Virus record (IMG/VR): IMGVR_UViG_3300045988_114759
Reading direction: 5' to 3' (one strand)
DNA from: a virus
DNA length: 64,000 nt
Shown: piece after piece, positions 12,876 to 51,968 of the stretch
Position numbering within the stretch: position 1 is the stretch's first letter
How the letters are laid out: each line of letters opens with the position of its first letter
Program-made: the position numbers and the translations under genes
The notes under the pieces: generated by a model
What the model was told of the DNA's origin: nothing
Seen by the model: only the letters and a program-made list of their open reading frames with translations
The model's database searches: none

Positions 12876-12955
12876 CCGGTAGTATCCCCTCAAGCTTATA
12901 CCTTGTAGAAAGGGTAGTTGGTTACACGTGGGTTCAAATCCCTCCTACCGGACCA
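12876..12955 (+). tRNA. tRNA-like gene with encoded CCA; anticodon unresolved
   Basis: Acceptor stem ccggtag/ctaccgg. T-arm gtggg-TTCAAAT-ccctc. Discriminator A plus CCA. 45 nt lie between acceptor and T-arm, 4 more than a class I tRNA. The D-arm region lacks the usual GG and no clean anticodon stem was found. Confidence 0.45.
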
Positions 12956-13261: not shown

Positions 13262-13702
13262 ATGAACTACCCAGAGCAACAAATGCTTAAGATCCTTAAT
13301 AGGGATCTGTTAAGTAATCCGATGTATGTTATTAACAATCTTCATATATATGATTGGGAATCTGACTTCCTGGCCATAACAAGATCATTGTACGCTTATG
13401 AAGTAGAGGTTAAGATGTCTAAACAAGATTTCTTTAACGACTTCAAAAAGGATAAAAAACATAAGGTTCTTAAAGACGGCATTATTAAGGTAGGTGGTGT
13501 CATAAGCTATCCTCCAAACTATTTCTACTACGCCTGTCCTCCTAATATGATTGACGTAAGTGAAGTTCCGTCTTATGCCGGGCTGATTTATGTCGATGTT
13601 AGTAAAAATAGGAAGAACGTCGTTAAAGTAGCACCTTTAATTCATAGACAGAAGTTTGATGTAGTGGGTAGGAAACTGGTGGATAAGTTTTACGATCTTT
13701 AA
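13262..13702 (+). CDS. hypothetical protein
   Basis: 146-aa ORF immediately after the tRNA cluster. Confidence 0.45.
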   Translation: MNYPEQQMLKILNRDLLSNPMYVINNLHIYDWESDFLAITRSLYAYEVEVKMSKQDFFNDFKKDKKHKVLKDGIIKVGGVISYPPNYFYYACPPNMIDVSEVPSYAGLIYVDVSKNRKNVVKVAPLIHRQKFDVVGRKLVDKFYDL

Positions 13703-13782
13703 CAAAACCCCTGCTTTTAAGCAGGGGATCAATGATTCTTTTATTCATATATGTATTTTTTAATAATTGATTCTGATACCGG

Positions 13783-14115
13783 TTGCAGAAATGCAGGGGT
13801 TCCATACGTTTGTATCCAAGAATCCCATTTGCTTTAGCGATGGGAGTATGTCAATACAATATGCTCACTTGGAAGAAAAGAGCTATTTCAAACGTGTATG
13901 CTGACCCAGCCAAGGAGAGAGAGAAAGGCGTGCGTGCCGGGGCTGAGGCTGTGAGGAAGTCGGCCTGGGATGCGTTCAGGGCGCAGTGCCCGCACATTGC
14001 TTTCCCCTATGGAAATGAATTTCCGATGTGTGACGATCACGAACAAGATCATCCCATGAGAGACTGCATTCTTCAGTGTGAAAAAGGTAGAATATTTAAA
14101 AACAAATTAAAATGA
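13783..14115 (+). CDS. hypothetical Cys/His-rich protein; the 5' end lies inside a dispersed repeat
   Basis: 110 aa. The first ~25 codons fall within the ~60-bp repeat also present, inverted, at 23.8 kb. The C-terminus is Cys/His-rich (CPHIAF...CDDHEQDHPMRDCILQC). Confidence 0.35.
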   Translation: MQKCRGSIRLYPRIPFALAMGVCQYNMLTWKKRAISNVYADPAKEREKGVRAGAEAVRKSAWDAFRAQCPHIAFPYGNEFPMCDDHEQDHPMRDCILQCEKGRIFKNKLK

Positions 14116-15311: not shown

Positions 15312-16298
15312 TTGATTACCAGTGGCTTCTATAGAGTTCTTTGCAAGAGCGCTATGGGAGGAGGAGAGGTTTTTGTATGTAGGTTGAAGGAAGACAACAG
15401 CAATTTGTATCTTGATGGCAGTCCGGCTGTTCTTACCGGAGAAGAAGGTGATGTGATGGTCGTTTTCTTAGAATTTTGGTATAAGTGGTATAAGGTGGAT
15501 GATAATAGATTTCTTTATCATTTTGCTGATCATGATATCGACGGTACTTACATTCATGTCCCGCAATCTCTTGTTGGAGCATATAAAGGATATGTGTCTT
15601 CAAATAGACTATATAGCTGGAGTGATGTTACTCCTACGACGAACGTATCATTATCTGATTTCAGAAGTTACGCAAAAGCACGTGGTACCGGTTTCCAGGT
15701 GATAGATTTTCAACAACATTGTGTGATTGCTATGATGTTGTATGCTAAGTACAAAACACGTAACCTGCAAGGCGTATTAGGACCCGGTGGCGCAACCGGT
15801 GGTGCGGCTACAACAACGGGAAGCAGCAACGCAACCGGTGGTGCGGATACCGAAAACGAAAGTTCAAAGTATGTTTGCGGCTTAGGACTTGAAGGTGTAT
15901 TTGGCGGTATCTGTGAATGGGTTGAAGGTGTAGAAATAAACAACCGAGTTTGGAAAATCACCGACCCGGACGGTTCGACTCGCAATGTGAACGCCGAGAC
16001 TTTCAGCGGTTGGATAATAAATATAGCAGCCGAAAATGGTCCGTTTTTTGATGTGGTGCCGACACAAGTTGGCGGTAGCGATTCCACGCATTATTCAGAT
16101 TACTATAGTCGGACATCAGACAGCTCCCTTGTTTTGGCGCGCTCCGGTTACCGCTCGTGTCCGACTGGCGGCGTGGCGTATACGGATGCGGCTTACGATG
16201 CGTCGGACATGGATTCGAGCTACGGTTCTCGTCTTGCTTTCCACGGAACCATATCCGAATTGGCTCCAAGGCAATTCAAAAGATTACCCGTATTATAA
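15312..16298 (+). CDS. glycine-rich putative virion/tail-fibre-like protein
   Basis: 328 aa with a G/T/A-rich stretch (GPGGATGGAATTTGSSNATGG), then a Ser/Tyr/Asp-rich C-terminus. No enzyme motif. Confidence 0.45.
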   Translation: MITSGFYRVLCKSAMGGGEVFVCRLKEDNSNLYLDGSPAVLTGEEGDVMVVFLEFWYKWYKVDDNRFLYHFADHDIDGTYIHVPQSLVGAYKGYVSSNRLYSWSDVTPTTNVSLSDFRSYAKARGTGFQVIDFQQHCVIAMMLYAKYKTRNLQGVLGPGGATGGAATTTGSSNATGGADTENESSKYVCGLGLEGVFGGICEWVEGVEINNRVWKITDPDGSTRNVNAETFSGWIINIAAENGPFFDVVPTQVGGSDSTHYSDYYSRTSDSSLVLARSGYRSCPTGGVAYTDAAYDASDMDSSYGSRLAFHGTISELAPRQFKRLPVL

Positions 16299-16378: not shown

Positions 16379-16801
16379 ATGAAGATAAACTTTTTAAGCA
16401 GTAAGGTTTATGTAGGTTCTAAGACAAAAGAAGCTAAAATCAGAAAGCTTTCTATTAGCAAAGATCGGATTATGACCATATCGGTAGATAACCTGAAATG
16501 GATGGGTATCGAAGATGCGGTTCTGATTGGTATGGAAGAAGGAGCTGAGTTTAAAGGGGTGTTGGATTCTAATTTGTATATAGCTCCTTCTAAGGTAGAA
16601 GACGAGAGATCGTTTTTATTAAATAAACAAGGTGAGAAATATAGACGTATTTACCTCCGTGATGTACTGTCTTCGCTGGGTTGGGATATCGGTGATAATA
16701 AGTATGCGGTTTATGATATTGTGAAGATTAAGGACGAAGATGGTGTGTTCTGCCTGGTTCCGAGAGAGATTAAGAAAAGCAAGTTTGAAAAAGGAGAATG
16801 A
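16379..16801 (+). CDS. hypothetical protein
   Basis: 140-aa ORF. Confidence 0.45.
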   Translation: MKINFLSSKVYVGSKTKEAKIRKLSISKDRIMTISVDNLKWMGIEDAVLIGMEEGAEFKGVLDSNLYIAPSKVEDERSFLLNKQGEKYRRIYLRDVLSSLGWDIGDNKYAVYDIVKIKDEDGVFCLVPREIKKSKFEKGE

Positions 16802-16802
16802 T

Positions 16803-17360
16803 ATGGTACAAGATATTGATATAAAATCCAAACGAATATTATTGTTTGATTTTGATGGAACGCTTATAGAAACCGCTTCTGGGAATACGTTCGCTACAGA
16901 CTTGACAGATATGAGGATTAAGATGGATGTGGTGAATAAGGCTCTTGACCTCATGTAGGAGAACGGTGTTAAGGTATTTGCTATCGTAAGCAATCAAGGA
17001 GGAGTAGAAGCTGGGTTTGTTTCTGGAGCTGATATTGAAGCTAAGATAGAATACGTACTGAGGTGCGTACATGATCTGGCGGTAAAGAGAGGCATAAGAG
17101 GCGTCTTGTATGAAAAAAGGTTGTGTTATTCAAATGACGAACAAAATCCGATGAGGAAGCCTAACACGGGCATGATTGATGATATTCTTATGAAGTGTAA
17201 AGACACGGTAATGCGCGGTATGAACTTCAGTCAACTTAAGGGATGTTCGTTGATGGTCGGGGACGCCAGTGGTCTGCCAGGTCAGTTCTCTGATTCGGAT
17301 AAGGTATGTGCTTATAATGCTGGTATTGACTATATGGATAATTACTACGTTTTTGGATAA
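16803..17360 (+). pseudogene. HAD-superfamily phosphatase interrupted by a single in-frame TAG at 16956-16958
   Basis: Motif I LFDFDGTL (DxDGT). After the TAG, the same frame continues with motif II IVSNQGG, motif III RKPNTGMI and motif IV MVGDASGL. The order and spacing resemble GmhB/PNK-type 3'-phosphatases. The ORF table splits this frame into 16740-16958 and 17106-17360. Confidence 0.6.
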
Positions 17361-17682
17361 AGATCTTGATTTAGAATATGTATTGTCCAAAGAACATACA
17401 AGTGAAGGAATAGTTATTTTAAATAATGGCTATATATATATCCTTGAAAATCCATATGGTGTTGGTCTTAATATAAAAATCACTTTAAAAGATTTTTATA
17501 AGATTGAAACCGATGATGGAAAAAATGCAACCGTAGATGATGTGCTGAATATAAGGATTGATAAAGATCGGAATTTCAATTCATATAGTGATGTTGTAAA
17601 GATAGAGGTATTAGAAGACGGTAGTATCAAATATATAAGTTTGTATCATGAAAGTAAAGAAAGCAGCGATAGTTTATCATAA
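17269..17682 (+). CDS. hypothetical protein (start uncertain)
   Basis: ORF in another frame overlapping the 3' end of the HAD gene. There is no internal Met after residue 17, and a TTG start near 17353 is possible. Confidence 0.3.
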   Translation: MVCQVSSLIRIRYVLIMLVLTIWIITTFLDKDLDLEYVLSKEHTSEGIVILNNGYIYILENPYGVGLNIKITLKDFYKIETDDGKNATVDDVLNIRIDKDRNFNSYSDVVKIEVLEDGSIKYISLYHESKESSDSLS

Positions 17683-18607
17683 ATCGGATTTAGATGGCGT
17701 TGTATCGGCAGCCATCGCAACCATGTACGAAAACAGTAAAGACAGGGATGTTATTTATATCCCGTATTCGTATGAAGATGATGTTAAGAAAGTTACCAGC
17801 AAGGTGAGTGACTTAGATGTTGTTTACGTTCTTGACGTGTCTTTTGGAGCCGATTCTAAAACGGTTTTCAAGAAGTGGCTTGATGAAGGAAAGAGCCTGA
17901 TGTGGATAGATCATCATAAGGGGATTATCGAAGATAGTAAGACATGGGGGTTCGTAGTTCCAGGGTTGAGGAGAGTCGGTACCGGTGCGTGCGCACTTGC
18001 TGCCGACCTGCTGATGGGGAAGGTGCCGGCGATCGTCCGGTGTCTGTCAGACTACGATGTGTGGAATAAAGAATCCGGTTTAGGCTGGGATACGGTAGTA
18101 GCTGTCCAGTATGCCTTGAGATCAAAAATTCGATTGAATGTGTTAATAGCATTGTCGTACTTGTATGATCACTTTAAAGAAAATATGAAAGACAATGAAA
18201 TTGATCTTATTTTTTATGATCTTGCTAAAGAAGGACGTGCTATAATTAACTACATGGCTGGTAAAAACGAAGATGAGGTAAGTAGGTGTTCGTTCGAAGC
18301 GCACGTCGATGAGGTGAAGGTTGTAGCGATGAATACCGCTGAATCAGGTTCTAAGGTATTTGATTCTCTTACACCGGACTGGTTAGACGGTAGAAAAATT
18401 AAAGCTTTGATGCCATTCTGTATCATGCCAGGTGGAAAAGTTAGGTTCTCTCTTTACAAATGCGTAGAAGACGGCGTAGATTGCTGTGAGGTAAGTAAGA
18501 GATTCGGTGGTGGAGGACATGCCGGTGCTGCTGGATTCGTTATAGACGTATCAAGCGACCAATTTAAGGACTTCCTTGAAAACCACAAACTTACTTCAAT
18601 TCAATAA
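17648..18607 (+). CDS. DHH-DHHA1 phosphoesterase (NrnA-like nanoRNase / pAp phosphatase family)
   Basis: N-terminal YHKSDLDGVVSAA (DHH motif I). MWIDHHKG (DHH motif). C-terminal GGGGHAGAAGF (the GGGH signature of DHHA1). Confidence 0.8.
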   Translation: MKVKKAAIVYHKSDLDGVVSAAIATMYENSKDRDVIYIPYSYEDDVKKVTSKVSDLDVVYVLDVSFGADSKTVFKKWLDEGKSLMWIDHHKGIIEDSKTWGFVVPGLRRVGTGACALAADLLMGKVPAIVRCLSDYDVWNKESGLGWDTVVAVQYALRSKIRLNVLIALSYLYDHFKENMKDNEIDLIFYDLAKEGRAIINYMAGKNEDEVSRCSFEAHVDEVKVVAMNTAESGSKVFDSLTPDWLDGRKIKALMPFCIMPGGKVRFSLYKCVEDGVDCCEVSKRFGGGGHAGAAGFVIDVSSDQFKDFLENHKLTSIQ

Positions 18608-18617
18608 ATTAATAAGG

Positions 18618-18662
18618 TCGTGTTTTAAATAGGATTGGTTTCTATCAATCCTATTTTTTTTT
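18618..18662 (+). terminator. intrinsic terminator after the DHH gene
   Basis: The 9-bp stem aataggatt/aatcctatt is followed by T9. Confidence 0.6.
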
Positions 18663-18679
18663 GTGTTGCGTGGAGAGGC

Positions 18680-19045
18680 GGGTGTGATGATGATAAAATG
18701 AGAAATAGGTTTGTGCGATGGGAGAGAAAGACAGAAATAGGTTTGTGTGATGTGGGAGAAAGACAGAAATAGGTTTGTGTGATGTGGGAGAAAGACAGAA
18801 ATGGGTTTGTGTGATGGGAGAGAAAGACAGAAATGGGTTTGTGTGATGGGAGAGAGGGGCAGAAATAGGTTTGTGTGATGGGAGAGAGAAAGACAGAAAT
18901 AGGTTTGTGTGATGGGAGAGAGGGGGTGTGATGATGATAAAATGAGAAATAGGTTTGTGCGATGGGAGAAAGACAGAAATAGGTTTGTGTGATGGGGGAG
19001 AGGGGGGGGGGAAATAGGTTTGTGTGATGTGGGAGAGGGGGTACC
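18680..19045. repeat. tandem direct repeat array (~10 imperfect copies of a ~32-35-bp unit GAAATAGGTTTGTGTGATGGGAGAGAAAGACA); iteron-like
   Basis: Counted directly in the sequence. Copies vary by gtg/gcg and by gggagag length. The array lies in a ~900-bp non-coding region followed by AT-rich palindromes. Confidence 0.85.
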
Positions 19046-19519
19046 TATCACGAACCTCCCGCCCCCGAAACGCGTTTTCTACCCCACACCCCCCTTCGCT
19101 TGAAAACCGGAAACGCGTTTTTACCTCAAACCTACAAACTCTCTGATTATCAATCATTTATTTAAATTATTGATAATCAATGTGTTATTATAACATATTG
19201 ATTATAAGCCACTTAAATAAGCATATATCCCACATATTAATGTACGCGTGTAATACCGCTCCTGTATGTTTTTTATAACTTGCTGATAATCAGATAATAT
19301 AATCGAAATTAATACAAATTAACAAAAAAAAGATAGCATATATATTTGTAATATTGATAAATGTCGTATATTTGCGTCGTGATCGAGAGAGATCGCAAGT
19401 TAACATGATGAGCCTATATAGTGTACCCGTTGGGCTAACTATATATGTATCTGTTAATCGCCTGCGTTGTGGGCTATTGAATTGAATATCACTTGTTTAA
19501 CAAATAAATACATAATGTT

Positions 19520-30888: not shown

Positions 30889-31722
30889 ATGGAAACTACA
30901 AACAAACTGTTTTATTCAGGTACAAAATTCTTTACAGAAAATGAAGAAGATTATAGAATAACAGTTAGAATCTCTTTGGATGATGACTGCAAAAATAACA
31001 TATGCGACTGGAGCATAACAGCCGACGTTGACTGGAAAAACAAGCATGGAAAATATGAGGATTACTTAGGAAGCTGCTGCCACGATGAAGTCGTAAAACA
31101 TTTTCCGGAATTGGCGAAATTCATATCGTTGCATCTTTGTAACCATTATGGTGCTCCTATGCATCCGGTAGAAAATGGCATATATCACGTTAGAAGAAGT
31201 GGTATGTCTGTGGCAATGGAGTATTTGCGTATATCAGAACAAGAATGCGTAGAATTATATAAAGCCTCTGAGGATAAGATGTATTTCAAGTATCTGCTTT
31301 TCAGTCTTGGAATCGTAGATAGATGGAAAAGAGAATCAGAAGAACTTATTGCGGAACTTGAAAAATTGTGTGGCAAGAAATGGGTAAATCCGTATATGCC
31401 GGAAAAGGAAAGGTTTACTTTGACATTAACGGACGAGGAACGTTTGCTTATTGAAGAGCGCATTAAAGCTGGGTATTATTCCGCAGAAAGTATCGAAAAA
31501 CGTAGGGAAGAGACTCATAAGGCAAAGATGTTGAAAAAGCGTGCTGAAATTTGTGAGCGATACGATAAGAAAATCAGACAAGCAGAAGCAGAAAAGAAGA
31601 TAATGCTCTGTGTGTTTGATTATGGATTGCCAATTAATAATGTTATATATTATCCTCACACGAACACTTTGTCTTTCAACTGGAACGGTTATGGAGAAAA
31701 AAATCACACAGGAAGAGTTTGA
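30889..31722 (+). CDS. hypothetical protein (277 aa)
   Basis: Contains Cys/His pairs (CKNNICDW...CCHDE...HLCNH). No confident family assignment. Confidence 0.45.
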   Translation: METTNKLFYSGTKFFTENEEDYRITVRISLDDDCKNNICDWSITADVDWKNKHGKYEDYLGSCCHDEVVKHFPELAKFISLHLCNHYGAPMHPVENGIYHVRRSGMSVAMEYLRISEQECVELYKASEDKMYFKYLLFSLGIVDRWKRESEELIAELEKLCGKKWVNPYMPEKERFTLTLTDEERLLIEERIKAGYYSAESIEKRREETHKAKMLKKRAEICERYDKKIRQAEAEKKIMLCVFDYGLPINNVIYYPHTNTLSFNWNGYGEKNHTGRV

Positions 31723-31772
31723 TGATTTTGTGAATAAGGTAGACCGCTCTCAATTGCCAGAAGATATTAGGT

Positions 31773-32087
31773 TTGAGCTTAAATAAAATACAGGATATGG
31801 AAAGATTGAATTTTGAAACATTGTTTCGTATCGTAAGATGGGATTACAACCGTTGTTTTAAGGATGAGTCGTTAGACAAGGATTTGTTCGTGGAAAAATA
31901 TGGGAAAGTTATGGGTGAACATTATTATAACAAGTTCGTTCATGAGTTTGACGGGAACATCCTGAAGATGATTGGTTACTTCAGAGGTTCCGAAAAAGAG
32001 GGGCAAGTCTTCTGCGATATGATAACCGAACGTATTGAAAAATACGAAAAGAGAATGTCATATGATAAAGGTAAGTTAAACAATTAA
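31773..32087 (+). CDS. hypothetical protein
   Basis: 104 aa. Confidence 0.4.
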   Translation: MSLNKIQDMERLNFETLFRIVRWDYNRCFKDESLDKDLFVEKYGKVMGEHYYNKFVHEFDGNILKMIGYFRGSEKEGQVFCDMITERIEKYEKRMSYDKGKLNN

Positions 32088-35908: not shown

Positions 35909-36131
35909 TGTTGTTTCCCGTGTAGCACTTGCGACGGCAATTGTATTATTGGTAGTAGCGGGTGCTACTTTGTTGATAGTGATTAAGACCGAAGAAGTAC
36001 CGAGATGGTTAATGAACTTACCATATACGTTGTCTTTAACGGCGGTATCTTTTTCAATTATATCACTTGTATCGAAATATAAAGAGTGGAAAAGAAATTG
36101 TACGTCTGCGAAAGATGCGGACGAAAAGTGA
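35901..36131 (+). CDS. small membrane protein (2 TM helices)
   Basis: 76 aa with hydrophobic stretches VALATAIVLLVVAGATLLIVI and LSLTAVSFSIISLV. Confidence 0.35.
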   Translation: MSDVVSRVALATAIVLLVVAGATLLIVIKTEEVPRWLMNLPYTLSLTAVSFSIISLVSKYKEWKRNCTSAKDADEK

Positions 36132-36598
36132 TGATAAGAAGTCATGGCTTATGCCAGGCTTGCAGGAGCAAAGAGTTGACTCCGAAGAAAAAAGACAGAA
36201 TTACATCCATTAAAAACAACAGCAAGAAGAAAAAGTTAGAGAGCCCGGATTTATCCGGGTTTTTTCGTCTTATGCTGGAGGAGTTGAATAGTATTCGAAT
36301 GTCTATGACCGGTAAGGCTATTCATTTTCCTACAGTATGTAACGTATGTCACATACTTCCAAAAAGGATATATAAGTCGGTTGCCACTTGCAGAGATAAT
36401 ATAGTTTTTCTACATGAATCGGAGCATACGGTATTCGACATGTATCTTGACAGGATGGAATTTGATAAACTTGAAACAGAATTTCCTTTTGTGTGGAAGT
36501 ATGCGGTAAAGAAGGTACTGGATATGGAAAACAGGGGAATGATTAAAGAAAGAGGTAGGTTGATTATTGAAATAATTGACAGGTATAACCCCAAATAG
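36086..36598 (+). CDS. zinc-ribbon protein
   Basis: 170 aa. The N-terminus reads CERCGRK...HGLCQACRS (CxxC...CxxC). Later Cys/His residues follow. Confidence 0.4.
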   Translation: MEKKLYVCERCGRKVMIRSHGLCQACRSKELTPKKKDRITSIKNNSKKKKLESPDLSGFFRLMLEELNSIRMSMTGKAIHFPTVCNVCHILPKRIYKSVATCRDNIVFLHESEHTVFDMYLDRMEFDKLETEFPFVWKYAVKKVLDMENRGMIKERGRLIIEIIDRYNPK

Positions 36599-40138: not shown

Positions 40139-40397
40139 CATGGAAAATTACAAAAACACTTTAAACGAGGTAGTGGTGATCGAATCGTCACCAGAAACGT
40201 ATTTTGTTTACGCTATTCGTAATGCTATTCGTATCTCTAAATGCGCGTATCCGACAGCCAAGAAAGTAATTTTCAAAAGAGAGGACGTAGAGGTAGAGAT
40301 CTCAGAAATGGAAACTGAAAGCAGTTTGTATGAAAAGTTTAAAGAAAAACAAAAGAATAGGGTATGGAACTTAATGAGCGCCAACAACGGATTTTAA
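40122..40397 (+). CDS. hypothetical protein
   Basis: 91 aa. Confidence 0.35.
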   Translation: MKQVDNMENYKNTLNEVVVIESSPETYFVYAIRNAIRISKCAYPTAKKVIFKREDVEVEISEMETESSLYEKFKEKQKNRVWNLMSANNGF

Positions 40398-40930
40398 GAG
40401 GCGAAATTTGTCCTTATTGCGGAAGAGAAACCGAGTTGGTCAATGCCGATAAAATATATAGCAGAAAAGGCTTAGGGATGGTTATGATGTGTAAACCATG
40501 CAACGCTTATGTCGGTGTTCATGAATCAGGGCCGAATAAGGGAAAAGCTAAAGGCCGGCTTGCGGGCCCATCACTAAGGTCTCTTAAAATAAGAGTCCAT
40601 GCCGAACTTGACAGACTGTGGTCTACGCCGGAAGAACAGGAAAGGATGTATAAAGATTTATCAGAATTTCTCTCTATACCGGAAGAATATACGCATATAG
40701 GCATGTTCGGTGAGAAGACGATGGGGAAAGTCTTTCAGTTCTGTCATATAAATAAAGAACGATCAGGTTCGAGGATAGAATGGCATAAACCTGGAGATAA
40801 GTGTCCTAATAAGAATAATCAAATAGTGTCAGGGAGTAGTGCATGCAGGGGATGTCCTGAGTATCTTCATGATGAGAAAGACGGATATGTTTGGTGTGAT
40901 CCTGATATGAGCTACGGCAGGTTGAAATAG
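40364..40930 (+). CDS. zinc-finger protein
   Basis: 188 aa. The N-terminus reads CPYCGRE...CKPCNAY. The C-terminus reads CRGCPEYLHDE...C. Confidence 0.4.
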   Translation: MELNERQQRILRGEICPYCGRETELVNADKIYSRKGLGMVMMCKPCNAYVGVHESGPNKGKAKGRLAGPSLRSLKIRVHAELDRLWSTPEEQERMYKDLSEFLSIPEEYTHIGMFGEKTMGKVFQFCHINKERSGSRIEWHKPGDKCPNKNNQIVSGSSACRGCPEYLHDEKDGYVWCDPDMSYGRLK

Positions 40931-43921: not shown

Positions 43922-44150
43922 GAATCAGAAAGATAATAGAGGATATAATTATTACTCAGTTTCTTAATTCGGAAATAGATATAGTTCATGAAGAAGATGT
44001 GACGTTTAAAGAACTTGGATTAGATTCTATTGATCAAATTGAACTGGAAATGATGGTGGAACAAAAAATTCAATATTGTTATTATTGATTATGATATGGA
44101 GACCATCAAAGATATGACTGATCTTGTTTACAAAATAATAACAGAAGGAT

Positions 44151-44645
44151 ATGGGAAGTGACATAATTTTATGCATGGCTTTAATAGCGTCATTTGCTTT
44201 CGTTATACAGTTTTTGTTGTCGATATTAGGATCTGATCTGGATACGGATATTGATATTGATGATGCTTCTGATTTAAGTATGTCTTTGTCGGACATCATA
44301 TCATTCAAGGGCATAACACATTTTATTCTTGGATATAGCTGGACTACCTACTTTTCGGGTTCCCATTTAGTAGGGGTTGTGATAGGGTCGTTTTTCTTTA
44401 TCGTTTTGTTTTACGTATATAAGTTACTTTTTAAGTTAAAGCAAGAAATGGTGTACGAATGTCCGGAAGATTTAAATGGCAGAGAGGTGGAGATAGTGTT
44501 TAGATCAGGGAAGAATCATTATATGGTAAATATTTCGAAAAATGGAAGACAGGAGCAAATGAGAGTAAGATGCTTGTCTGGAAAAACTTACAAAAACGGT
44601 GACAAGGTGAATATAAAATACGAAGAAGGAGAATTAATTATCTAA
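44151..44645 (+). CDS. NfeD-like membrane protein (YqiJ/YuaF family)
   Basis: 164 aa. The N-terminal half has hydrophobic helices (ILCMALIASFAFVIQFLLSIL and VVIGSFFFIVLFYV). The C-terminal ~70 aa has a short beta-rich OB-like tail (EVEIVFRSGKNHYMVNI...GDKVNIKYEEGELII), as in NfeD. Sits directly upstream of the flotillin gene. Confidence 0.6.
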   Translation: MGSDIILCMALIASFAFVIQFLLSILGSDLDTDIDIDDASDLSMSLSDIISFKGITHFILGYSWTTYFSGSHLVGVVIGSFFFIVLFYVYKLLFKLKQEMVYECPEDLNGREVEIVFRSGKNHYMVNISKNGRQEQMRVRCLSGKTYKNGDKVNIKYEEGELII

Positions 44646-51224: not shown

Positions 51225-51968
51225 ATGGAAAAGATGGATGATATTATTATCCCAAAGGGGGAAAGCGTGGTTATTAACAAAGATGTTCATGCTTATAAAA
51301 CATTAGTAGCCAAAAAAGGGCTTAAGGTTGTGTGTGAAAAAGATATCAAAAAAGGAGATAAGGAGGTCACGCTGTCGTATGAAGGTCGTATGGAGATCGA
51401 TATACCAGTTGATTATATACTAAAGAATGATGATGTCCTTTTCAAAGAAGGAGAATTGCTTTTTGTTAAAAAGGATTATTCTTTTAAAGATGACATTGTT
51501 CCTGGAGGAGCTATAGTTGAGTTGGCGGAAGATGTCTACAATGTAGATGTTATGGCTGTCATATATTATGAAGGGGGAAAGATTTGTATGCCCTTAGAAT
51601 TATTAGAACCTGTTAGTTCAGAAAAAAGAAATAATAAAAAAGAAGGAAAATCGGTGAAAAATGACATCATTGATGATAAACTACGATGGGATTTGCTTCC
51701 GATGGAAGAAATTGAGGATATTGTAAGAGTTTATCATGCCGGAGCCAAGAAATATGGTCCTAATAATTGGCAGAATCTTGACAACGGCTTTGAACGGTAC
51801 CGCGCTGCAATGTTTAGACACCTGATAGAATACATGAAAGGAGAAAGAGTGGATTCTGATACAGGATGTTTTCATCTTGCACAATGCGCATGGAACTGTA
51901 TAGCTATGCTGTGGTATGATAAGCACGGAAAAGGGTTAATGCCTTTAAACAAGGAGGAAAAGAAATGA
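51225..51968 (+). CDS. protein with C-terminal dATP/dGTP pyrophosphohydrolase-like (DUF550/MazG-like all-alpha NTP-PPase) domain
   Basis: The C-terminal half RWDLLPMEEIEDIVRVYHAGAKKYGPNNWQN...FRHLIEYMKGERVDSDTGCFHLAQCAWNCIAMLWY matches the phage dATP/dGTP-PPase domain pattern as recalled (R.DL.P...GA.KYG..NW...RHL...E.D.ESG..HLAH.A.N). The N-terminal half is unknown. Confidence 0.5.
   Translation: MEKMDDIIIPKGESVVINKDVHAYKTLVAKKGLKVVCEKDIKKGDKEVTLSYEGRMEIDIPVDYILKNDDVLFKEGELLFVKKDYSFKDDIVPGGAIVELAEDVYNVDVMAVIYYEGGKICMPLELLEPVSSEKRNNKKEGKSVKNDIIDDKLRWDLLPMEEIEDIVRVYHAGAKKYGPNNWQNLDNGFERYRAAMFRHLIEYMKGERVDSDTGCFHLAQCAWNCIAMLWYDKHGKGLMPLNKEEKK

Follow-up and report, generated by a model that had tools for sequence, protein, structure and literature searches.

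Two adjacent genes at positions 16803-18607 of a 64,000-nucleotide stretch of viral DNA (IMG/VR record IMGVR_UViG_3300045988_114759; hereafter the window) raise the question of what a phage gains from a HAD-type 3'-phosphatase encoded next to a DHH-DHHA1 phosphoesterase. The first-pass annotation of the locus called the second enzyme NrnA-like and offered two roles for the pair, the healing of cleaved tRNA or RNA ends and the destruction of cyclic-oligonucleotide defence messengers. The pair was placed correctly, as the ATG at 16803 opens a HAD frame with a DFDGT nucleophile motif. The features that bear on its function are as follows.

16379-16801, plus strand: 140-aa ORF, first in the unit (ORF list and sequence)
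16803-16958, plus strand: codons 1-51 of the PNK3P (HAD) phosphatase, DFDGT at codons 16-20, ended by a premature TAG at 16956-16958 (translation)
16959-17360, plus strand: rest of the HAD domain in the same frame (SNQ, K-P-N, GDASG...SDSD), to a TAA at 17358-17360 (translation, Pfam, alignment)
17340-17341, plus strand: extra A, GATAATTAC where relatives read GATATTAC (aligned base by base against L031, L006 and L013)
17341-17682, plus strand: last 113 aa of the phosphatase, a C-terminal extension displaced into the +1 frame (comparison with relatives)
17648-18607, plus strand: DHH-DHHA1 phosphoesterase, intact, 319 aa (ORF, Pfam and PHROG)
18627-18656, plus strand: terminator-like hairpin, 13-bp stem and T-run (consensus scan, pattern match alone)
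18701-18994, no strand assigned: 32-nt tandem repeats, 6.8 copies followed by 2 degenerate copies (Tandem Repeats Finder)

Positions 16379-18656 constitute one tightly packed, same-strand gene unit, because the TGA of the 140-aa ORF ends 1 nt ahead of the phosphatase ATG, the first 35 nt of the DHH gene are shared with the 3' end of the extension ORF, and a terminator-like hairpin begins 20 nt past the DHH stop; this predicted hairpin probably marks the end of the transcription unit. The unit comprises the 140-aa protein, a kinase-less PNKP-type HAD 3'-phosphatase with an apparently lineage-specific C-terminal extension, and a compact DHH-DHHA1 phosphoesterase, and it occupies the far end of the replication/nucleotide-metabolism arm of a ~145-150 kb human-gut phage related to csAssE-Sib (OR575929.1). 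The earlier description of the pair as downstream of structural genes is right locally only: immediately upstream come a tail-protein-like C-terminal ORF (15312-16298) and, on the minus strand, an ORF with a BACON domain, but the wider upstream block encodes a helicase, ThyA, RuvC, DnaN, SSB, dUTPase, tRNAs and an MmcB-like gene. The tRNA genes by the unit in the window are Gln, Arg and Cys, and an Rfam scan of 12.5-22.5 kb returned nothing but tRNAs. The 140-aa ORF matched nothing in Pfam, PHROG or PADLOC. Its identical sequence occurs on 17 contigs within a cluster of 847 members; csAssE-Sib has a gene of equal size at the same position, and no similarity was detectable to the same-position ORF of locus L090.

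The orthologous csAssE-Sib genes have the same order, orientation, overlap and neighbors as those of the window and are annotated as "polynucleotide kinase, 3 phosphatase" (WOZ57223.1) and "phosphodiesterase / NrnA" (WOZ57222.1), with identities of 84.7% for DNA, 93% for the DHH protein and ~65% for the HAD protein. The two loci differ in that the csAssE-Sib phosphatase is an intact 290-aa ORF, whereas that of the window carries a TAG and a frameshift, and in that the DHH gene is followed by a 130-aa HExxH gene in csAssE-Sib but by the hairpin and tandem repeats in the window. The finding is therefore largely ordinary, both enzyme families being well known and already annotated in a related GenBank record.

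When codon 52 was read as Gln, the HAD frame matched Pfam PNK3P (PF08645) over residues 12-178 with 76.3 bits (cut-off 22; E 2.9e-21), and with the stop read through it matched NCBIfam HAD-IIIA with 51.6 bits (cut-off 44.6), which bears out a PNK-type 3'-phosphatase at the superfamily level. More specific models were not reached: the DNA 3'-phosphatase equivalog TIGR01664 gave 73.1 bits against a cut-off of 107.65 (E 2.4e-20), Pfam HAD_PNKP (PF25109) gave 14.4 bits against 27.6, and the bifunctional kinase/3'-phosphatase TIGR01663 gave 47.6 against 502.8 bits, with the phosphatase part alone matched; nor did the ORFs flanking the phosphatase show a kinase match in Pfam or PHROG. The catalytic motifs are D16-F-D18-G-T20, S63-N-Q, K119-P-N and G153-D-A-S-G with D164/D166, and the catalytic residues are invariant in 30 homologues save position 154; the first Asp of motif IV is D, N, S or Y in intact alleles. 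Among solved structures, the PNKP phosphatase domains of mouse and human come nearest (E 1.8e-6), and IMG names for homologues include DNA 3'-phosphatase. Like mammalian PNKP (1yj5, 3zvl; the best solved sequence match) and the PNK3P and TIGR01664 families, the enzyme combines a HAD-IIIA fold with the motifs DxDxT, S/T-N-Q, K-P and GDxxG...D; unlike mammalian PNKP, it has neither a kinase nor an FHA domain and bears an unrelated, beta-rich extension of 113 aa. Where intact, the phosphatase (290-292 aa in relatives) is a real gene, as indicated by its integrity in 70 of 81 loci and a dN/dS of 0.13 for the HAD domain.

The phosphatase allele of this genome is null: the gene is a decaying pseudogene. 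The HAD ORF as written is 51 residues long and stops at codon 52, which is TAG here, CAG (Gln) in the nearest relatives L031, L006 and L013, and GAG in csAssE-Sib, so that together with the frameshift at 17340 the HAD domain as a whole has no uninterrupted coding sequence. The extra A at 17340 puts the last 113 residues of the phosphatase in the +1 frame, and the TAA at 17358-17360 is present only because of this frameshift. A C-to-T change gave the TAG at codon 52, and the 1-nt insertion that cut off the C-terminal extension came later. An alternative position for the frameshift, the T5 run at 17350-17354, was ruled out by the base-level comparison that places the extra A at 17340. With a stop after residue 51 and a frameshift, the phosphatase is inactive in this genome, and no function is to be assigned to it here.

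Could the phosphatase nonetheless be made, by TAG readthrough or Gln recoding combined with programmed frameshifting, or could both lesions be sequencing errors? CAG to TAG is the substitution expected of amber-to-Gln recoding, and the TAG allele persists in many genomes, the remaining gene being intact in 5 of the 10 TAG carriers that were fetched. Yet TAG closes at least nine other window ORFs of at least 100 aa, among them 36086-36598, which matches csAssE-Sib NinG, and 40364-40930, which corresponds by position to a csAssE-Sib zinc-finger protein; we rejected global TAG recoding on this ground, and there is no suppressor tRNA in the window and none annotated in csAssE-Sib. Carriers of the TAG are moreover enriched for further frameshifts or deletions (7/12, versus 8/77 non-carriers; Fisher p 4.7e-4), and these additional disabling lesions include large deletions. 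Sequencing error was rejected for both lesions because identical truncated products recur on many independent contigs: the 51-aa product on 25 contigs (NCBI, JGI, Logan, ENA), the frameshift-specific products of 69 aa and 121 aa on 2-3 contigs, the longest of 143,288 bp, and on L181 (67,890 bp), for a total of 25+5 contigs with exact truncated products. The frameshift allele is thus rare, and the inserted A, a single base within GATATT, lies in no conserved slippery context. Continued production of the phosphatase is accordingly very improbable.

The C-terminal extension, missing from the first-pass annotation, spans the gap between the HAD domain and the DHH gene. In csAssE-Sib, as in 42 of 81 related loci, one continuous ORF encodes it together with the HAD domain. 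Outside the lineage, a HMMER search of 1.84 billion representatives returned weak, repeat-like matches only, to giant VCBS-type proteins, which we regard as compositional; the extension appears to be specific to this lineage. It is predicted to be mostly beta and evolves fast (dN/dS 0.27-0.53), and the AF2 model of the intact homologue P0121 is of low confidence (pLDDT 61).

The second gene was likewise borne out at the superfamily level as a DHH-DHHA1 phosphoesterase, with a Pfam DHHA1 match of 31.8 bits (cut-off 25.9), a DHH match just under threshold (24.1 versus 28.1 bits) and a match to PHROG 4771, "DHH phosphoesterase", over residues 4-302 (E 7.9e-27). Pfam assigned the protein to no family besides these two domains, and by sequence family it does not belong to Acb1, Apyc1 or AcrIII-1. 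The motifs H11, D14, D16, D63, D88-H89-H90, D137 and G288-G289-G290-H291 are invariant across 44 homologues, amino acid identity is 92-97% and dN/dS is 0.11; the gene is intact, catalytically complete in its motifs and under purifying selection. It is nonetheless non-essential, having been deleted in two natural genomes (L176 and L177). The AlphaFold model (pLDDT 92.6) has a two-domain fold with a helical inter-domain linker at residues 147-214.

The label "NrnA-like" did not survive closer inspection: the NrnA equivalog NF053633 gives 12.8 bits against a cut-off of 350, and the protein's closer resemblance seems to be to NrnB or archaeal RecJ2. In IMG the exact window protein carries the name "oligoribonuclease NrnB/cAMP/cGMP phosphodiesterase", and its best PDB profile match is 6mtz, an uncharacterised H. 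pylori protein. With NrnB (B. subtilis, H. pylori) and NrnA it shares a two-domain DHH-DHHA1 architecture of ~300-400 aa, a GGGH motif and an alpha-helical linker between domains. Identity to any solved DHH enzyme is 11-19%, and the fold matches (RecJ2, pAp phosphatase, TmPDE, DhhP, NrnA) score alike, favoring no subfamily; archaeal RecJ2 (7ykv), which is ~110 residues longer, and the archaeal pAp phosphatase (8a8k) each show 14% identity, a ranking that carries no functional discrimination. In size and modelled architecture (319 aa, two domains, helical linker), the protein matches nanoRNases and pAp phosphatases and not RecJ. The substrate choice of DHH-DHHA1 enzymes is not predictable from sequence (PMC10570053). 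Those NrnB enzymes that have been characterised digest short RNA and short DNA, including a DNA 5-mer, exonucleolytically in the 3'-5' direction (PMC10570053, PMC12709177), and B. subtilis NrnB did not act appreciably on c-di-AMP or pAp (PMC10570053).

Linkage of the two genes varies among relatives. The phosphatase and DHH genes are adjacent in two clades; the arrangement of PNK3P and its extension beside DHH recurs in locus L090, where the DHH product is only 35% identical. At L087, PNK3P lies 2.6 kb from DHH. Within the largest sister clade, PNK3P is found 5 kb or less from DHH in only 2 of 90 loci, and in the main sister clade a MazZ-like dNTP pyrophosphohydrolase (dATP/dGTP diphosphohydrolase) follows DHH in 80 of 90. 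The DHH homologue of L089 sits between a PDDEXK nuclease with an ATP-dependent DNA ligase and an AAA_24 protein. In more distant relatives, genes for Acb2/Tad1-hairpin-like (L084) and Tad2-like (L086) proteins occur 2-5 kb away, together with DNA methyltransferases. The phosphatase is polymorphic by presence or absence, by null alleles and by mosaic alleles.

Our preferred reading, held tentatively at a probability of roughly 0.45, is that the pair serves nucleic-acid end unblocking and short-oligonucleotide turnover in the replication/nucleotide-metabolism arm. The DHH enzyme would be a Mn2+-dependent exonuclease/phosphodiesterase that converts short RNA or DNA oligonucleotides, which may derive from host nucleic-acid breakdown, primers and abortive transcripts, to 5'-mononucleotides for phage DNA synthesis. 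An intact phosphatase would strip 3'-phosphates that stand in the way of an NrnB/RecJ2-type 3'-to-5' exonuclease, or of polymerase and ligase, so that the pair would work as "unblock, then degrade or extend"; in this genome, with the phosphatase broken, only the second step would be left. The direction of the DHH exonuclease is an assumption. The upstream ThyA, dUTPase, SSB and DnaN genes, the MazZ-like neighbor in the sister clade and a MazZ-like gene in the window itself (51225-51968) support a nucleotide-metabolism role. The absence of PNK3P-DHH adjacency from the largest sister clade stands against it, and the Acb2/Tad1-hairpin-like and Tad2-like neighbors in distant relatives are equally compatible with an anti-defence neighborhood.

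The same two activities could process DNA ends for the phage repair or recombination machinery, with a PNKP-like DNA 3'-phosphatase working alongside a RecJ-like ssDNA exonuclease. This is suggested by the best HAD matches (TIGR01664 and mammalian PNKP, with which the IMG homologue names agree), by the MmcB-like repair nuclease, RuvC, SSB and DnaN in the window, by the nuclease, ligase and AAA_24 neighbors in L089, and by RecJ and RecJ-Cdc45 among the DHH fold matches. However, the 319-aa DHH protein consists of the two core domains and lacks RecJ's OB fold and additional domains, the RecJ models TIGR00644, NF040701 and NF053576 give 13-14 bits against cut-offs of 360-550, TIGR01664 itself falls below its cut-off, and no phage DNA ligase is annotated in csAssE-Sib, so we consider this reading unlikely. 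Somewhat less likely again is that the DHH enzyme, alone or together with the phosphatase, breaks down the cyclic di- or oligonucleotide messengers of CBASS, Pycsar or type III CRISPR systems. GdpP, CnpB and DhhP, found among the PDB matches, are superfamily precedents for c-di-AMP cleavage, and together with the membrane-associated DHH-DHHA1 nuclease of S. islandicus, which degrades cOA, they have a catalytic superfamily in common with the window protein (PMC7841402); the similarity is remote, however, and membrane, PAS and GGDEF modules are all lacking from the window protein. The anti-defence-like genes and methyltransferases near distant homologues, and phosphatase polymorphism of a kind often seen in accessory arms-race genes, also fit such a role, which has already been predicted for jumbo-phage DHH enzymes (PMC7824862) and is, as defence-signal degradation, speculation. 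Against it stand the high conservation of the DHH protein, its synteny with nucleotide-metabolism genes, the lack of appreciable activity of B. subtilis NrnB, whose family IMG names for this protein, on c-di-AMP and pAp, and a phosphatase that is dead here; PADLOC matched no defence system in the unit or its neighbors, and the neighboring small ORFs that were scanned include no known anti-defence family. We found nothing relevant in the literature on csAssE, or on crAss-like phages and DHH.

A more elaborate version makes PNK3P, its extension and DHH a two-enzyme counter-defence module, in which DHH would open or degrade phosphorylated or cyclic immune-signal oligonucleotides and the phosphatase would remove terminal phosphates. 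We find this distinctly improbable; if true, a continuing arms race with Bacteroidales hosts would underlie the circulating null alleles, the mosaic alleles, the IscB insertions and the DHH deletions, as might happen where a phage discards a gene whose product sets off a host sensor. The proposed healing of RNA (tRNA) ends after anticodon-nuclease attack, on the model of T4 Pnkp and Rnl1, fares slightly worse still. HAD 3'-phosphatases are the usual removers of linear phosphates in phage RNA-repair systems (PMC7824862), tRNA genes adjoin the unit, and the csAssE-Sib genome adds tRNA-Tyr and tRNA-Lys, located next to a Ro60-like protein, as well as a gene of the CCA-adding/poly(A)-polymerase-like kind. 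T4 Pnkp, likewise a phage-encoded HAD-type 3'-phosphatase, is however a kinase-phosphatase fusion partnered with RNA ligase 1, whereas no kinase domain and no ligase were detected here: the polynucleotide 5'-kinase domain is missing, as the TIGR01663 score indicates, and neither a Pfam scan of 27 window ORFs nor the csAssE-Sib annotation supplies a 5'-kinase, an RNA ligase (Rnl1, Rnl2) or RtcB. Within this scanning, 20 further window ORFs checked for kinase, ligase and anti-defence families gave the MazZ-like gene only. The window itself contains neither the CCA-like nor the Ro60-like gene, and the phosphatase is disabled both in this genome and in many others in circulation.

The DHH enzyme defines a widespread, conserved phage subfamily with thousands of gut-metagenome sequences and, more distantly, members in Lak megaphages, and its substrate would tell oligonucleotide recycling by large gut phages from an attack on host signaling. 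The phosphatase offers a clear natural case in which a null allele circulates and the gene then decays, with a ready comparison of carriers and non-carriers.

The repeats noted earlier downstream of the pair are present as the tandem array at 18701-18994 (Tandem Repeats Finder), directly downstream of the unit; they are context and lie outside the gene pair. Many related IMG/VR contigs stop 50-250 nt beyond the DHH stop, which points to an assembly break point or a genome end there.

The window phage DNA (G+C ~37%) is closest, among GenBank records, to csAssE-Sib (OR575929.1), a 151-kb phage from the human gut that is 84.7% identical to it at the DNA level across the region, and in whose record the virion proteins bear crAss001-style names ('ring', 'muzzle'). 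Three ORFs are tightly packed on the + strand, with a hairpin and repeats beyond them:

16379-16801, + strand: 140-aa ORF with no family match
opens at 16803, + strand: HAD (phosphatase) reading frame, 1 base after the stop of the preceding ORF
17648-18607, + strand: DHH-DHHA1 phosphoesterase (DHH) gene, 319 aa
18627-18656: 13-bp hairpin with a T-run, 3' of the DHH stop
18701-18994: 32-nt tandem repeats, beyond the hairpin

Upstream of this unit is a replication and nucleotide-metabolism block (helicase, ThyA, RuvC, DnaN, SSB, dUTPase, ATPase, tRNAs, and an MmcB-like nuclease), separated from it by a minus-strand BACON-domain ORF and one tail-protein-like C-terminal ORF; downstream are the repeats and many small ORFs without family matches. 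The similarity of the tail-protein-like ORF (15312-16298, 328 aa) to large tail proteins is confined to their C-terminal part (phrog_14959, E 9e-48; phrog_5302 'tail protein', E 8e-33); the ORF lies inside the replication arm, and the csAssE-Sib annotation shows nothing equivalent at that position. Where relatives of the csAssE-Sib type have a metallopeptidase-like HExxH gene of 130 aa overlapping the DHH stop (4298-4690 in contig L175; 2226-2618 in csAssE-Sib), the window has, at 18607-19150, the terminator-like hairpin and tandem repeats. Because many IMG/VR contigs stop no more than 50-250 nt from the DHH stop, the region after this gene is either a genome terminus or a point at which assemblies break.

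Neither enzyme family is new, and the related GenBank record already annotates both; what is useful here is the recognition of a phosphatase pseudogene, a corrected placement of the DHH protein, and population evidence for a circulating phosphatase null allele. With codon 52 read through, the phosphatase scored 76.3 bits against Pfam PNK3P (cut-off 22, E 2.9e-21), in agreement with the first-pass annotation, and exceeded the NCBIfam HAD-IIIA cut-off; its score against TIGR01664 'DNA 3'-phosphatase' was 73.1 bits, below the cut-off of 107.65. The kinase-phosphatase model aligned with the window gene through its phosphatase part only, and the nearest solved structures were those of the mouse and human PNKP phosphatase domains (E about 2e-6). 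All four motifs (I-IV) occur in the gene and are conserved across 30 homologues, except the first Asp of motif IV, which varies (D, N, S or Y) between intact alleles.

The pairing of the two genes, as first annotated, is real; the description was incomplete in that the phosphatase is disrupted here. A TAG codon at 16956-16958 interrupts the frame after residue 51, shortly beyond the nucleophile motif. The csAssE-Sib phosphatase is a single 290-aa ORF, and its last ~110 residues have their counterpart in a +1-frame ORF of the window (17341-17682). In a base-by-base comparison with the three closest relatives (L031, 99.4% identical; L006; L013), all of which (3/3) encode an intact phosphatase, the window differed by T for C at 16956 (TAG versus CAG, Gln) and by one additional A at 17340. 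The phosphatase is thus a pseudogene in this genome. Recoding of TAG was rejected, since TAG terminates at least nine other window ORFs of ≥100 aa, including a match to NinG of csAssE-Sib (36086-36598) and, by position, one to the zinc-finger protein of that phage (40364-40930). No suppressor tRNA is annotated in csAssE-Sib, and the window tRNAs are Gln(UUG), Arg, and Cys. A possible fourth (12876-12952; 28.3 versus the Rfam gathering score of 29 bits) was not called by ARAGORN; the equivalent position in csAssE-Sib is annotated as tRNA-Met. Sequencing error was rejected because the exact truncated products recur: the 51-aa product on 25 contigs from four sources, a 72-aa version on 5 further contigs, and frameshift-specific products on 2-3 contigs, among them contigs of 143,288 bp and 67,890 bp. 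We regard readthrough of the TAG, or an artefact, as highly improbable.

Further frameshifts relative to csAssE-Sib appear to affect an acyl-carrier-protein-like gene and two hypothetical genes (43954-44158; about 31640-31783; about 54079); the genome may contain several pseudogenes, or these other frameshifts may be indel errors. Relative to csAssE-Sib and L031, the MmcB-like (PDDEXK) repair gene is interrupted by a 161-nt insertion (13694-13854), which leaves it in two parts, 13262-13702 and 13855-14115. The insertion contains hairpins (CCCCTGC-TTTTAA-GCAGGGG, 13708-13727), and a 20-nt hairpin probe found no second copy in the window; Rfam gave no match. The insertion could be a small intron or a miniature mobile element.

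Across csAssE-Sib and 80 IMG/VR relatives the DHH protein is intact and 92-97% identical, and the phosphatase occurs in several states.

State of the phosphatase gene in csAssE-Sib and 80 IMG/VR relatives
Intact, with the C-terminal extension (last 113 aa): 42 loci
Intact, without the extension: 21 loci
Intact, ~1-1.5 kb away from DHH: 7 loci
Disrupted: 7 loci
N-terminus not found: 4 loci (1 of 4 merely cut by the contig end)

In the 7 separated loci, the inserted segment codes for an IscB-like PLMP-RuvC-HNH protein. This ~400-aa gene, with an N-terminal PLMP-like motif and RuvC-like and HNH motifs, lies exactly between phosphatase and DHH (L005, 2751-3977; also L017, L021, L041, and L046; degraded in L059) and clips the end of the C-terminal extension; TnpB genes are also present in csAssE-Sib. 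Phosphatase alleles are mosaic, with three HAD types and two extension types in several combinations. The dN/dS ratio was 0.13 for the HAD domain where intact, indicating purifying selection, 0.11 for DHH, and 0.27-0.53 for the extension. Ten genomes with the TAG allele were fetched, 5 without another lesion, 3 with frameshifts, and 2 with deletions that also remove DHH; with L072 and L075 added, further lesions were found in 7/12 carriers versus 8/77 non-carriers (Fisher p 4.7e-4). This excess is consistent with a genuine null allele undergoing subsequent decay, and the window shows decay at its second stage. The two deletion genomes, L176 (16,190 bp) and L177 (148,356 bp), indicate that DHH is dispensable in nature; the L176 deletion lies between microhomologies that both encode GFV, one in the HAD gene and the other in the DHH gene.

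The DHH protein exceeded the Pfam cut-off for DHHA1, fell slightly below that for DHH, and matched PHROG 4771 'DHH phosphoesterase' (E 7.9e-27); across 44 homologues, ranging down to 30% identity, neither the GGGH motif nor any DHH motif varies. An AlphaFold2 model (pLDDT 92.6) comprises a DHH domain, a three-helix linker, and a DHHA1 domain. Its fold matches, to archaeal RecJ2 (17.1), archaeal pAp phosphatase (16.6), TmPDE (14.3), DhhP (14.0), an uncharacterised H. pylori protein (6mtz; 13.7), NrnA (12.4), and RecJ (11.9), single out no subfamily. Profile scoring ruled out RecJ, and the earlier label 'NrnA-like' had to be withdrawn, as the NrnA equivalog model gave 12.8 versus 350 bits; the protein belongs to a phage DHH subfamily that is distinct and uncharacterised. 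In IMG, the identical sequence carries the name 'oligoribonuclease NrnB/cAMP/cGMP phosphodiesterase'.

While the gene identities and the null phosphatase are established, function is a matter of inference; the reading we favor, at a probability of roughly 0.45, is oligonucleotide turnover with end unblocking. The DHH enzyme would be a metal-dependent exonuclease converting short oligonucleotides to mononucleotides for phage DNA synthesis, as suggested by its compact nanoRNase size, helical linker, and NrnB-like IMG name, by ThyA and dUTPase here, and by MazZ-like genes in sister clades. The NrnB enzymes that have been characterised are 3'-5' exonucleases acting on short RNA and a DNA 5-mer (PMC10570053, PMC12709177). 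If, as we assume, a 3'-phosphate would block such an exonuclease, an adjacent 3'-phosphatase would have a simple role, unblocking the 3' end for degradation or extension. The main rival, the same chemistry serving DNA repair, seems rather unlikely. Counter-defense through cyclic-nucleotide degradation has precedents (PMC7841402) and was put forward earlier for jumbo phages (PMC7824862); activity of B. subtilis NrnB on c-di-AMP or pAp was not appreciable (PMC10570053, PMC12709177), no defense or anti-defense families were found among the window ORFs scanned, and we consider this role unlikely. Healing of tRNA ends is improbable: neither kinase nor RNA ligase turned up in the window ORFs that were scanned or in the csAssE-Sib annotation. 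In csAssE-Sib, tRNA-Tyr and tRNA-Lys have a Ro60-like gene next to them, and there is also a CCA-adding-like gene; both genes are absent from the window or outside its span.

Evidence for linkage is that the phosphatase and DHH genes are overlapping or adjoining, with one terminator-like end in common; that the order PNK3P(+extension)-DHH recurs in the distant contig L090, whose DHH is only 35% identical; that PNK3P is 2.6 kb away from DHH in L087; and that both DHH deletions (n=2) are in genomes with an already null phosphatase. Fused ORFs also occur, as rare singletons. Among 90 loci of more distant DHH homologues, PNK3P lies ≤5 kb from DHH in only 2 (L090 and L087), and a MazZ-like dATP/dGTP diphosphohydrolase is directly downstream of DHH in 80, which argues against an obligate pair. 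Two further points count against it: in L089, DHH is flanked by a PDDEXK nuclease and ATP-dependent DNA ligase on one side and by an AAA_24 protein on the other, and the MazZ-like gene of the window itself is at 51225-51968 (PF18909, E 2.3e-26), 33 kb from DHH. The remoteness of the latter, set against the adjacency in the sister clade, implies rearrangement in the window lineage. No counterpart of Acb2/Tad1-hairpin-like or Tad2-like genes was found among the window small ORFs scanned; in two distant phage contigs, such genes (L084, 11779-12024, and L086, 9244-9783, respectively; precomputed Pfam) lie 2-5 kb from the DHH homologue.
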